6,113 nucleotides of DNA from IMG/VR virus record IMGVR_UViG_2690316166_000018; one strand, given 5' to 3'. Source of the stretch: a virus (lineage: Duplodnaviria; Heunggongvirae; Uroviricota; Caudoviricetes). The notes under the pieces were generated by a model. It ran no database searches. It saw only the letters and a program-made list of their open reading frames with translations, and was not told the origin of the DNA. Shown piece by piece: positions 102-6,113 of the stretch. Numbering within the stretch: position 1 is the first letter of the stretch; every line of letters begins with the position of its first letter. The position numbers were made by a program, and so were the translations under genes.

Positions 102-1024
102 TCACTCTGTTTCTGCTATCCATTCCGGGATTTTTGCCTCAAGCTCAAGCTGCGTGGTAAAGCCGCTGTTATCAATGGTGTGCTCGGCTTTTGCAATAAT
201 CCAGTCCTGATTATCAATCTCGCTTTTAAATCCTGTTACCGTGCCATGCATTTCGGGGTAGAGTTCTGCACGTCCATGCGCCAGTGTGATGGAGAATGAT
301 GCGGCTCCGCGTTGTAGCTGCTGCCACTTTGCCGCCGCTGCACGTCTTGCTGCCTGCTCGTTCTGATAAGTTTTGCGTAACACAAACACGTTGCCTTCCG
401 CACCTTCCATATAGTCGCCTTCCCGGCTGCTGCTTTTCTCCTTTTTTGGTTTTGACGGTTTGCGGCGTTTCACGCTGACTTTTTTCTTTTTCCCGTAATT
501 AAGATCAAGCCAGTAAGCGCGTACCCCCGTATACGCTTCGCGGTCAGCAATGCGGAACTGATGGCGATCGCCGCTGCTGCGTGTGATGGCGAACGAGGGC
601 AACGGCTGGCCCTGTGCGTTCACGCCACCACCGGGCATGATGAATAACAGATTACCGCTTTTTACCGTGGTGATTGCGCCCAGCATTTCCGCCATGCGCG
701 TAAGGAAGGACATGTCGCTTTCTTCGGTCTGGTCGGCGTGGTCGATTTCGATATCCATCAGCATTTCGCTGATTTGCGGTTTCAGACCATACCGATGAGC
801 GATGGCGGATACCACACGCTCAACGGTCACATCATGCCAGGACACCTCACGTTTAACGTTAAATTCAGCCCGAAAATCTGCGCTTCTGGCTGAAACAGTC
901 AGCCTGTCCGGCGGTCCTTCGTGAGCGATTTCATCAACAATGTAAGTGCCTTTTTCTGTCAGCGGTTCTCCCTTCCAGCCAATGAGAACCGTCAGGCGCG
1001 CGCCCCGTGGCGGTAGCTGCAACT
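102..1024 (-). CDS. D: Phage late control gene D protein (gpD-like baseplate hub / tail protein D), 5'-partial because the N-terminus is masked
   Basis: Minus-strand ORF with TGA stop (complement of 102-104). The 306 visible codons end in ...HTIDNSGFTTQLELEAKIPEWIAETE and contain ...GARLTVLIGWKGEPLTEKG...SWHD...GVRAYW..., which I recognise as the P2 gpD family from memory. The frame stays open up to the mask edge at 1024 (the M in the ORF track is a TTG read as a start), so the true start lies inside 1025-1488. If full length is 350-390 aa like P2 gpD, the start is roughly 1180-1280. Confidence 0.82.
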
Positions 1025-1423: not shown

Positions 1424-2720
1424 NNNNNNNNNNNNNNNNNNNNNNNNNNNNNNNNNNNNNNNNNNNNNNNNNNNNNNNNNNNNNNNNNTGTTGATTCCAG
1501 CGTTATCGGTATCGTGGCAACGGCGGATGATGCGGACGCGGAGCTGTTCCCGCTGAACAANNNNNNNNNNNNNNNNNNNNNNNNNNNNNNNNNNNNNNNN
1601 NNNNNNNNNNNNNNNNNNNNNNNNNNNNNNNNNNNNNNNNNNNNNNNNNNNNNNNNNNNNNNNNNNNNNNNNNNNNNNNNNNNNNNNNNNNNNNNNNNNN
1701 NNNNNNNNNNNNNNNNNNNNNNNNNNNNNNNNNNNNNNNNNNNNNNNNNNNNNNNNNNNNNNNNNNNNNNNNNNNNNNNNNNNNNNNNNNNNNNNNNNNN
1801 NNNNNNNNNNNNNNNNNNNNNNNNNNNNNNNNNNNNNNNNNNNNNNNNNNNNNNNNNNNNNNNNNNNNNNNNNNNNNNNNNNNNNNNNNNNNNNNNNNNN
1901 NNNNNNNNNNNNNNNNNNNNNNNNNNNNNNNNNNNNNNNNNNNNNNNNNNNNNNNNNNNNNNNNNNNNNNNNNNNNNNNNNNNNNNNNNNNNNNNNNNNN
2001 NNNNNNNNNNNNNNNNNNNNNNNNNNNNNNNNNNNNNNNNNNNNNNNNNNNNNNNNNNNNNNNNNNNNNNNNNNNNNNNNNNNNNNNNNNNNNNNNNNNN
2101 NNNNNNNNNNNNNNNNNNNNNNNNNNNNNNNNNNNNNNNNNNNNNNNNNNNNNNNNNNNNNNNNNNNNNNNNNNNNNNNNNNNNNNNNNNNNNNNNNNNN
2201 NNNNNNNNNNNNNNNNNNNNNNNNNNNNNNNNNNNNNNNNNNNNNNNNNNNNNNNNNNNNNNNNNNNNNNNNNNNNNNNNNNNNNNNNNNNNNNNNNNNN
2301 NNNNNNNNNNNNNNNNNNNNNNNNNNNNNNNNNNNNNNNNNNNNNNNNNNNNNNNNNNNNNNNNNNNNNNNNNNNNNNNNNNNNNNNNNNNNNNNNNNNN
2401 NNNNNNNNNNNNNNNNNNNNNNNNNNNNNNNNNNNNNNNNNNNNNNNNNNNNNNNNNNNNNNNNNNNNNNNNNNNNNNNNNNNNNNNNNNNNNNNNNNAT
2501 CGGTGCCANNNNNNNNNNNNNNNNNNNNNNNNNNNNNNNNNNNNNNNNNNNNNNNNNNNNNNNNNNNNNNNNNNNNNNNNNNNNNNNNNNNNNNNNNNNN
2601 NNNNNNNNNNNNNNNNNNNNNNNNNNNNNNNNNNNNNNNNNNNNNNNNNNNNNNNNNNNNNNNNNNNNNNNNNNNNNNNNNNNNNNNNNNNNNNNNNNNN
2701 NNNNNNNNNNNNNNNNNNNN
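1424..2720 (+). CDS. FI: Contractile tail sheath protein (P2 FI-like); almost entirely masked, span is an estimate
   Basis: Only 1490-1558 is readable in this frame: VDSSVIGIVATADDADAELFPLN, matching the N-terminal motif of P2-type tail sheath proteins (recalled P2 FI region ...AIVGMVCTASDADAETFPLN...). It lies directly upstream of, and in the same frame class as, the tube gene. Start (~1424) and end (~2620-2730) are extrapolated from a ~396-aa P2 FI and are not observed. Confidence 0.5.
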
Positions 2721-2758
2721 NNNNNNNNNNNNNNNNNNNNNNNNNNNNNNNNNNNNNN

Positions 2759-3259
2759 AAACATCTTCGCTTTTTTACGCTGTTTGTGGATGGTGAAAAC
2801 GAAGTGGGTAAGGTGACGTCCGTCACTCTGCCTAAGCTGACGCGCAAAACCGACAGCTACCGGGGTGGTGGCATGATGGGAGCGGTAAGTATTGATCTCG
2901 GCCTGGATGACTCCGCGCTTGATGCGAGCTTTGTCATGGGGGGCGCAGTTCGTGAGCTGTTCCTTAAGTATGGCGGCACGATTGACGGTACGCTGCTGCG
3001 TTTTGCGGGTGAATACTACACCGACGCTGAAAGCGACCTGTATGAAGTCGAAATGCGCGGACGTGTGACGGAAATTGATATGGGGGAAGCCAAACAGGGC
3101 GAAGCCACATCACACACTTACGCCATTAAAAACACCTACTACAAGCTGAGTGTTAACGATCGCCCGTTGTGGGAGATTGACCTGCTGAACTTCATTTACC
3201 GGAAGGACGGCAGGGACATTGTGCCCGATCGCATCCGTTCCGCGCTCGGGCTTGGCTGA
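2759..3259 (+). CDS. FII: Major tail tube protein (P2 FII-like); first few codons masked
   Basis: Readable from the mask edge at 2759 to TGA at 3257-3259 (166 codons). Contains the conserved tube motif ...VTSVTLPKLTRKTDSYRGGGMMGAVSIDLGLDD...EVEMRGR...EIDMGEAKQGE... and ends ...RIRSALGLG. Position between sheath and gpE fits P2 synteny. True start estimated at about 2738-2750 inside the mask. Confidence 0.85.
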   Translation, partial: KHLRFFTLFVDGENEVGKVTSVTLPKLTRKTDSYRGGGMMGAVSIDLGLDDSALDASFVMGGAVRELFLKYGGTIDGTLLRFAGEYYTDAESDLYEVEMRGRVTEIDMGEAKQGEATSHTYAIKNTYYKLSVNDRPLWEIDLLNFIYRKDGRDIVPDRIRSALGLG

Positions 3260-3271
3260 TAAGTAATATGC

Positions 3272-3292
3272 AGGCGGCGCAGTGCGTCGCCT
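3272..3292 (+). other. RNA stem-loop in the FII-E intergenic spacer (9-bp stem including one G-U pair, 3-nt loop)
   Basis: aggcggcgc (3272-3280) pairs with gcgtcgcct (3284-3292), checked position by position. No downstream U-tract, so not a canonical intrinsic terminator. Confidence 0.35.
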
Positions 3293-3300
3293 CTGACTGA

Positions 3301-3306
3301 AAGGAG
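3301..3306 (+). promoter_or_regulatory. Shine-Dalgarno sequence (AAGGAG) for gpE
   Basis: AAGGAG at 3301-3306, 7 nt upstream of the ATG at 3314. Confidence 0.7.
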
Positions 3307-3313
3307 TTTCCTG

Positions 3314-3679
3314 ATGAAAGAGACGAAAAACATCGATACCGAAAACACGGTCGTTGCTGACACTGTGAAAGAAACCAGTGAGCGTGGCGTAAAACTTACC
3401 CAACCAATTGAGCGAGGCGGCGAAAAAATCACGTATGTGGAGATCACCGGGGCTATTGAGCAGGCTGGATCTCTGCGAGATTTGTCGCTGTCTGATGTGC
3501 TGAATTTGAAAGCGGAATCCATGTTTACGCTGCTGTCACGCGTGACATCACCGCGACTGGATGAAGTGACGATCAAAAAAATGGCATCCCGTGACTTTAT
3601 TCAGTTATGTGTGGTTGCCGTAAATTTTTTGAGCGGTGCGGACTCTGGCGAGAAGAACGAACAGGCGACGGAAGCCTGA
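3314..3679 (+). CDS. E: Tail assembly chaperone gpE (P2 E-like), zero-frame product
   Basis: ATG at 3314 with a strong RBS, 121 codons, TGA at 3677-3679. Sits immediately upstream of the tape measure gene and carries a TTTTTTG slippery heptamer near its 3' end, the arrangement conserved for tail chaperone genes upstream of tape measure genes. Confidence 0.85.
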   Translation: MKETKNIDTENTVVADTVKETSERGVKLTQPIERGGEKITYVEITGAIEQAGSLRDLSLSDVLNLKAESMFTLLSRVTSPRLDEVTIKKMASRDFIQLCVVAVNFLSGADSGEKNEQATEA

Positions 3680-3843
3680 TCACGGTTGTGTGCTTTGAGC
3701 ACATAGAAGACTTTGTGGCGGATATTGCCGCCATTTTTAACTGGTCGCCCGCCGAAATCTTCATGATGACGCCCGGCGAAGTGGTTAGCTGGCGTGAGCG
3801 GGCGGCACTTCGCAGCGGGAATGCAGACAATGAAGACTCTTGA
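3314..3843 (+). CDS. E+E': Tail assembly chaperone gpE+E' fusion made by programmed -1 ribosomal frameshift (join 3314..3631, 3631..3843)
   Basis: Zero-frame codons AAT TTT TTG (3623-3631) contain the heptamer T_TTT_TTG. The -1 frame is open from here and reads ...FFERCGLWREERTGDGSLITVVCFEHIEDFVADIAAIFNWSPAEIFMMTPGEVVSWRERAALRSGNADNEDS to TGA at 3841-3843. Same design as P2 E/E' and lambda G/GT. Confidence 0.75.
3625..3631 (+). promoter_or_regulatory. -1 programmed ribosomal frameshift slippery heptamer TTTTTTG (E to E')
   Basis: Seen directly: tttttt g at 3625-3631, in the X_XXY_YYZ register relative to the gpE frame, with an open -1 frame downstream. Confidence 0.75.
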
Positions 3844-6113
3844 TATCCGGGTCGCTTTCAGCGCCGTTGACAGGCTGACCCGGCCTGCCGAAAACGCCCG
3901 CCGCCTGATGGGGCAGTTTGGTGACTCCATCCAGCGAACGCAGGGGGCGATCAAAAATCTCGAGCGTCAGGCGCGTTCATTTGAGCGCGCCCGTGACGCT
4001 GTCAGTAAAGCGGATGCGGGCATCGTGAAAGCACGACGCCAGCTTAACGCCCTTAATCAGTTACAACGCACGGGTACAGTGCTCAGCGAAAAACAACAAA
4101 AGCTGATGCAGCAGTTAAGCACCCGGCTTGAACGCCTGAATGAATCGCGCACACGGGAAATTCAGAAAATGCGGGAACTTGGCGGAGAGCTGAAACGCCA
4201 CGGCATTTCCCTGACAGGCAGCGATAACACCATCCAGCAGGCCATCAGACGCACCGGACAATACAACAACCAGCTTGAACGCGAACGGCGGGCNNNNNNN
4301 NNNNNNNNNNNNNNNNNNNNNNNNNNNNNNNNNNNNNNNNNNNNNNNNNNNNNNNNNNNNNNNNNNNNNNNNNNNNNNNNNNNNNNNNNNNNNNNNNNNN
4401 NNNNNNNNNNNNNNNNNNNNNNNNNNNNNNNNNNNNNNNNNNNNNNNNNNNNNNNNNNNNNNNNNNNNNNNNNNNNNNNNNNNNNNNNNNNNNNNNNNNN
4501 NNNNNNNNNNNNNNNNNNNNNNNNNNNNNNNNNNNNNNNNNNNNNNNNNNNNNNNNNNNNNNNNNNNNNNNNNNNNNNNNNNNNNNNNNNNNNNNNNNNN
4601 NNNNNNNNNNNNNNNNNNNNNNNNNNNNNNNNNNNNNNNNNNNNNNNNNNNNNNNNNNNNNNNNNNNNNNNNNNNNNNNATGGACCTCGGCGAGACGGCG
4701 GATATTGGTTCCAATATCCTGACGCAGTTCGGCCTCTCTGCTGACCAGATGGACCGGGTCGGTGACACACTTACCGCAGCGTTTACCCGTACCAACACTG
4801 ACCTTCGCGCACTGGGCGAAACCATGAAATATGCAGGTCCGGTGGCGGGTAAGCTGGGAATATCGCTGGAGCAGGCCGCAGCGATGGCGGGCGTGCTGGC
4901 GAAGATGGGTATCAGGGGGAGTGATGCAGGTACAGCGTTGCGTAAAAGCCTGGCCAATCTGTCATCACCGCCAAAGGCAGCGGCAGAAGCACTGAAAGAG
5001 CTGGGGGTGTCAGTTGCTGACGCCAAAGGCAAAATGCGCCCGATGGAGAATGTGCTGGCCGATCTCTATAAAGCCACCCGCAAATACGGGGAGGTTGACC
5101 GGGTATCGTTCTTTAAGGACATTGCCGGAGAAGAGGCTTTCACATCATTTATGGGCCTCGTTGATGCGGCAGGTGACGGCTTCTTAGCCAAACTGAGAAA
5201 AGAACTTGAAGGCGCGCGCGGTGAGGCAGAACGCACGGCAAAGGTTATGGCCAATAACCTTGATGGCAACCTGAAATCACTCGGCAGTGCATGGGAAGGT
5301 CTGCGTATTCGCATCAGTGATCTGGTTGACGGTCCGCTGCGTTCTGTCACGCAGTGGCTCNNNNNNNNNNNNNNNNNNNNNNNNNNNNGCTCACGCGGGT
5401 TGTCTCAAAGGTGACGGCGCTGGCGCAGGCCCACCCGGCACTGACGCGCCAGTTACTGATAGCGGGAGGCGCACTGCTGGCGACAACAGCAACGGTTGGT
5501 TCGTTGTCTCTGGTTATTGGGGTGCTTCACGGGANNNNNNNNNNNNNNNNNNNNNNNNNNNNNNNNNNNNNNNNNNNNNNNNNNNNNNNNNNNNNNNNNN
5601 NNNNNNNNNNNNNNNNNNNNNNNNNNNNNNNNNNNNNNNNNNNNNNNNNNNNNNNNNNNNNNNNNNNNNNNNNNNNNNNNNNNNNNNNNNNNNNNNNNNN
5701 NNNNNNNNNNNNNNNNNNNNNNNNNNNNNNNNNNNNNNNNNNNNNNNNNNNNNNNNNNNNNNNNNNNNNNNNNNNNNNNNNNNNNNNNNNNNNNNNNNNN
5801 NNNNNNNNNNNNNNNNNNNNNNNNNNNNNNNNNNNNNNNNNNNNNNNNNNNNNNNNNNNNNNNNNNNNNNNNNNNNNNNNNNNNNNNNNNNNNNNNNNNN
5901 NNNNNNNNNNNNNNNNNNNNNNNNNNNNNNNNNNNNNNNNNNNNNNNNNNNNNNNNNNNNNNNNNNNNNNNNNNNNNNNNNNNNNNNNNNNNNNNNNNNN
6001 NNNNNNNNNNNNNNNNNNNNNNNNNNNNNNNNNNNNNNNNNNNNNNNNTCTGACACCTGCAAAAATGCTACTGGATACGCTGGCGTGGATACTTGAAAAA
6101 CTTGGCGTCCTTC
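3821..6113 (+). CDS. T: Tail tape measure protein (P2 T-like), interrupted by three masked spans and 3'-partial at the window end
   Basis: N-terminal segment (frame of ATG 3821; alternatives ATG 3830 or GTG 3794) is Arg/Gln/Glu/Leu-rich and coiled-coil-like (MQTMKTLDIRVAFSAVDRL...QLNALNQLQRTG...). Central segment 4680-5360 (...ADIGSNILTQFGL...ALGETMKYAGPVAGKLGISLEQAAAMAGVLAKMGIRGSDAGTALRKSLANL...) matches the conserved tape measure core region as I recall it. 5390-5535 encodes a hydrophobic segment (LLIAGGALLATTATVGSLSLVIGVLHG). 6050-6113 is open in the same frame. The start overlaps the end of E'. Confidence 0.85.

Follow-up and report, generated by a model that had tools for sequence, protein, structure and literature searches.

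Does the tape measure gene of this P2-like tail module change reading frame along its length, as the coordinates of its readable parts seem to say? The stretch of DNA that we analysed, here called the window, is 6113 nt long and is interrupted by six runs of N (A to F, at positions 1025-1488, 1561-2498, 2509-2758, 4294-4679, 5361-5388 and 5535-6048); its readable parts come to 3523 nt and form seven segments, which we compared with other contigs. This readable DNA is 88-100% identical to the tail modules of E. coli P2-like prophages and of Escherichia phage P88. The window covers tail genes of a prophage of the P2-like type (Peduoviridae, Xuanwuvirus P88-like), which follow the order D (on the reverse strand), sheath, tube, E/E+E' and T, and biologically this tail module is an ordinary one of its kind. 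Its features are these:

102-1024, minus strand: gpD-like tail protein, C-terminal ~307 codons (minus-strand ORF 102-1022; start under run A)
1489-2758, plus strand: tail sheath (FI-like), mostly under runs B and C; readable only at 1489-1560 and in a 10-nt island at 2499-2508
2759-3259, plus strand: tail tube (FII-like), Pfam PF04985 Phage_tube, E = 4.7e-46; first four codons under run C
3314-3679, plus strand: gpE-like tail assembly chaperone, 121 aa; homologous coding sequences in E. coli genomes are labelled 'phage tail protein E'
3625-3631, plus strand: TTTTTTG slippery heptamer of a putative E/E+E' -1 frameshift, with the E frame in phase 2 and the E' ORF in phase 1
3631-3843, plus strand: E' extension (-1 frame), with a 14-nt overlap with the start of T
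3830-6113 and past the window end, plus strand: tape measure gene T (P2 gpT-like, PF10145), start ATG at 3830; 2808 nt and 935 aa in identical contigs

The assignments draw on two annotated relatives, the prophage of E. coli CFS3292 (L001) and phage P88 (L002). Alignment pairs the gpD-like gene with gp51 of P88, a 'tail protein', and with a CFS3292 coding sequence of the 'VgrG/Pvc8 family', and the E' extension contains, at 3688-3843, the equivalent of a CFS3292 'GpE family phage tail protein' coding sequence (4930-5085). The annotated start of T in relatives corresponds to position 3830 of the window (5072 in CFS3292), and another in-frame ATG lies at 3821. T is also where a tape measure gene is expected, with E/E' (3314-3843) immediately upstream and, in both CFS3292 and P88, a 'phage tail protein' gene after it, in a part that falls past the window end. 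Beyond the D gene, in a region that lies past the left end of the window, the relatives carry genes for a hok/gef-family toxin and an ogr/Delta-like zinc-finger protein (904-1044 in CFS3292, 747-887 in P88).

We translated each readable segment of T separately. In window coordinates, the phase (coordinate modulo 3) does run 2 -> 0 -> 2, as a first-pass annotation of this DNA had stated:

3830-4293, plus strand: T segment in phase 2
4680-5360, plus strand: T segment in phase 0, with 0 stops (6 and 18 stops in the remaining two frames)
5390-5534, plus strand: T segment in phase 2
6050-6113, plus strand: T segment in phase 2

Both apparent points of frame change sit within N runs. The first-pass annotation had placed the masks at 4294-4679 (386 nt) and 5361-5388 (28 nt) correctly; the third, which it gave as 5536-6048 (513 nt), is actually 5535-6048 (514 nt). 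Its argument from the length of each mask modulo 3 is beside the point: had the masks kept their true length, it would be enough to compare the coordinate phases of the flanks. The question is accordingly whether the lengths of the N runs can be taken at face value.

A search with an exact 40-mer from the window found four IMG/VR contigs, which we refer to as L005 to L008. The closest, L008 (IMGVR_UViG_2693429557_000008), matches 3523 of 3523 readable nt (100%, exact string equality, no substitution), and L006 matches all 2427 of the 2427 nt that are covered (100%). L005 is 100% identical save for one segment at 99.2%, and L007 (IMGVR_UViG_2537561977_000023) is 96.9-100% identical. At the left end of the window, 93 nt fail to align to CFS3292 or P88 but agree exactly with L008 and L005. 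The T gene of L007 has two single-T deletions in homopolymers, at positions 377 (TTT to TT) and 1677 (TTTTT to TTTT), by which its ORF is cut to 127 aa; these are either homopolymer sequencing errors or the mark of a genuinely broken copy. A scan of metagenome contigs for a 40-mer of the window gave no match.

Taking L008 as the true sequence, we used the distances between its matching segments as the true lengths of the DNA under the N runs:

Run A, 1025-1488: 464 nt in the window, 412 nt in L008; excess +52 (1 modulo 3)
Run B, 1561-2498: 938 nt in the window, 817 nt in L008; excess +121 (1 modulo 3)
Run C, 2509-2758: 250 nt in the window, 229 nt in L008; excess +21 (0 modulo 3)
Run D, 4294-4679: 386 nt in the window, 367 nt in L008; excess +19 (1 modulo 3), apparent phase shift +1
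Run E, 5361-5388: 28 nt in the window, -4 in L008; excess +32 (2 modulo 3), apparent phase shift +2
Run F, 5535-6048: 514 nt in the window, 436 nt in L008; excess +78 (0 modulo 3), no phase shift

The excess is positive in six of six runs, and multiples of three are not favoured among them; the spread of the excesses modulo 3 is what would be expected from arbitrary length errors, not from selected in-frame indels. We also sought a rule tying mask length to true length over the six runs, such as a fixed offset, a fixed ratio or boundaries that line up, and found none. The negative distance at run E reflects the motif 'gctc', which flanks the run of 28 N twice (5357-5360 and 5389-5392) and is present as a single copy in the identical contigs, so that the two flanks overlap by 4 nt. 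One of the explanations put forward in the first-pass annotation, masks whose length differs from that of the true sequence, is therefore backed by the three runs in T, for which the identical contigs give 367, -4 and 436 nt against 386, 28 and 514 N.

We found T as a single 935-aa ORF in L008, L006 and L005, as well as in phage P88 and the CFS3292 prophage, where it is annotated at 2808 nt. In L008 the gene occupies positions 6148-8955 on the minus strand. In the three IMG/VR contigs the ORF is continuous from the equivalent of position 3830 past the window end; by proxy, this is the single ORF, from about 3821 to the window end, that the first-pass annotation had itself regarded as incompatible with a frame change. 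In the T protein of L008, PF10145 is matched at aa 228-427 over profile positions 1-201 of 201 (E = 1.4e-57; 195.3 bits, with a gathering cut-off of 33.2), and the boundary of mask D falls within this unbroken domain. A precomputed match to the same family is on record for all close homologues of the 4680-5360 segment. Since the readable bases of the window are identical to those of L008 and L006, and the ORF is continuous there, the frame change is best read as an artefact of coordinates. In terms of mechanism, the N runs in T would be longer than the DNA that they replace by 19, 32 and 78 nt, and each coordinate downstream of an N run would be displaced by the excess of that run, which would give the apparent phases 2 -> 0 -> 2. 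We infer from the sequence comparison that the masked DNA of the window is the same as that of L008 and L006, and we put at roughly 0.93 the probability that the frame jumps come from overlong N runs and that T is an ordinary gene, intact and with all of its 935 codons in one frame. The reported change of frame is not a real feature of T: the phase jump exists in window coordinates, not in the DNA that underlies them.

The sheath gene behaves in the same manner. It is a continuous ORF of 394 aa in L008 and appears in the window to pass from phase 2 to phase 0 across run B. As the sheath shows the same spurious phase change, the source of the effect lies in the N runs rather than in T.

Relatives outside IMG/VR agree with these lengths. 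Alignment of the readable segments to CFS3292 gave 0 gaps in about 3430 aligned nt and was gapless to the edges of the N runs, so all length differences must fall inside the N runs; in the P88 alignments, the sole gap is in segment 1-1024. The distances between segments in T are 367, -4 and 436 nt on both CFS3292 and P88, and a query of 3355 nt (2759-6113) matched spans of 3226-3236 nt in relatives, ~129 nt shorter. Among E. coli records, 1373 (from 1371 genomes) matched, and we sampled 40 evenly down the ranking. Run D is spanned by 39 of these 40, with the D, or D plus E, span shorter than in the window by 19-22 or 51 nt, and the mask lengths of the window were never seen in the 40 sampled records. 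Two alleles occur under mask D (L008 versus L005, 94.8% identical), both of them 367 nt long, and the copies from O157:H7 differ in this region by 3 nt. In all the relatives compared, nothing separates the two flanks of mask E, and a search of IMG/VR for 28 arbitrary bases between the flanks of run E returned no contig. Checked against CFS3292, the masked stretches showed neither unusual conservation nor unusual variability.

These comparisons bear on three other ways of explaining the phase changes. If the N runs are faithful in length, the window would come from a copy of the prophage in which T (+19, +32 and +78 nt), the sheath gene and the D region have gained real insertions that inactivate tail genes, in a sequence otherwise identical to intact copies; the prophage would be decaying and T a pseudogene, or the assembly would contain indels. 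The phase changes are genuinely present in window coordinates, the total excess in T of 129 nt is a multiple of 3 (a 1 in 3 chance by accident), and the related contig L007, with its 1-nt homopolymer deletions in T, is evidence that broken or mis-sequenced copies exist. However, six insertions would be needed, each of them lying wholly under an N run, when the roughly 3500 readable nt contain none and no substitution relative to L008; the sheath gene and the region between D and the sheath would have been hit likewise; and the insertions are absent from L008 and L006, which match 100% of readable bases, and from every one of the 39 E. coli records in the sample that reach across run D. Moreover, of 32 inserted bases the 28-nt mask beside the duplicated 'gctc' would need to hide exactly 28, and that spacing at run E is found in no public viral contig (IMG/VR). 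We therefore give real insertions only a slim chance; were they real, they would represent a very recent and unusual burst of small insertions into a decaying prophage, in itself an ordinary result. The first-pass annotation had offered a pair of frameshifts that compensate each other, the result of pseudogenisation or of errors in assembly, but T is a single 935-aa ORF in L008, L006 and L005, and no contig that is identical to the readable DNA has an indel that disrupts the frame. The possible defect in tail building that it had raised likewise has no indication, T being intact at 935 aa in contigs with identical readable bases.

A very small probability attaches to the idea that the hidden stretches are recombinant alleles from other P2-like phages, with real lengths and a T that may still function. 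In its favour, most E. coli copies share only 91-92% identity with the 4680-5360 segment, against 96-100% in its flanks, and the O157:H7 copies are 3 nt different in the mask-D region. Length variants among relatives are nevertheless small and in frame, whereas +19 and +32 nt would break the frame; both alleles seen under mask D are 367 nt, and the flanks of mask E adjoin in all the relatives that were looked at. Finally, the suggestion that T hides something non-standard could refer to a small inserted mobile element, to an intron, to an intein or to programmed recoding by which the frame is regained. The phase changes in coordinates are all that speaks for such an element, and we regard its probability as next to negligible: excesses of 19 and 32 nt are below the size of any known mobile element, intron or intein, the identical contigs encode a continuous protein with PF10145 unbroken across mask D, the N runs in unrelated genes are equally inflated, and the known TTTTTTG site of the tail module lies upstream at 3625-3631, outside T. 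Relatives read T in one frame throughout, so there is no sign of a programmed frameshift or other recoding inside the gene.

T is mosaic among P88-like prophages. The 4680-5360 segment is 91-92.5% identical to the best of the 1373 E. coli records (complete genomes), with its flanks at 96-100%, and its exact allele is present in the four IMG/VR contigs. When the protein encoded by this segment was compared with genome contigs, the matches listed were all distant loci (Stutzerimonas, Thauera) at 47-54% identity; the same query against a large protein collection returned partial tape measure fragments at ≤94% identity and no identical full-length protein.

Given overlong N runs as the preferred reading, there are two candidate causes of the wrong lengths. 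The N runs may be gaps of estimated size, left by assembly or scaffolding, or, just as possibly, the product of masking that alters length. In draft assemblies, N-run gaps of estimated size yield spurious frameshifts, and a duplication such as that of 'gctc' around the run of 28 N is typical of overlapping contig ends left with a residual scaffold gap. The window resembles a draft assembly with estimated gaps in that its N lengths differ from true distances, flanks that overlap by 4 nt are split by 28 N, and more than one gene is affected. It is unlike ordinary scaffolding in having a readable island of 10 nt (2499-2508) and overestimates in six of six N runs, and the six positive excesses are contrary to symmetric errors in gap size. 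Collapse of repeats was considered as a cause of the N runs and found no support (identity to CFS3292 is 90-99% under the masks versus 92-100% outside them).

The N runs in the window are thus unusable for arithmetic on frame or length, and counts of bases across them are unreliable. The inferences affected are those of frame continuity, of gene length and of tail length from the length of T. With a T as long as that of P88, no change in tail length is to be expected.

The only recoding signal nearby is the putative programmed -1 frameshift of E/E+E', a known and conserved feature. The TTTTTTG site of P2 E/E+E' is described in PMC3091744, which cites Christie et al. (2002) and Xu, Hendrix & Duda (2004). 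The window has the canonical P2-type TTTTTTG in E and a -1 ORF that is open to 3843 and overlaps the start of T. The site is in the chaperone gene upstream of T and not inside it, and it has no bearing on the phase changes claimed for T.

The closest known counterpart of T is gpT of P88 (Xuanwuvirus; TP901-family, PF10145). T is 935 aa long in the contigs identical to the window, and the readable DNA is 88-98% identical to that of P88. Gene order is shared with both P88 and the CFS3292 prophage, in which sheath, tube, E, E+E' and T are followed by a U-like tail protein. Between the T of the window and that of the P88 type we found no difference of substance, and most complete E. coli genomes carry a 4680-5360 allele that differs from the one here by about 8-9%.
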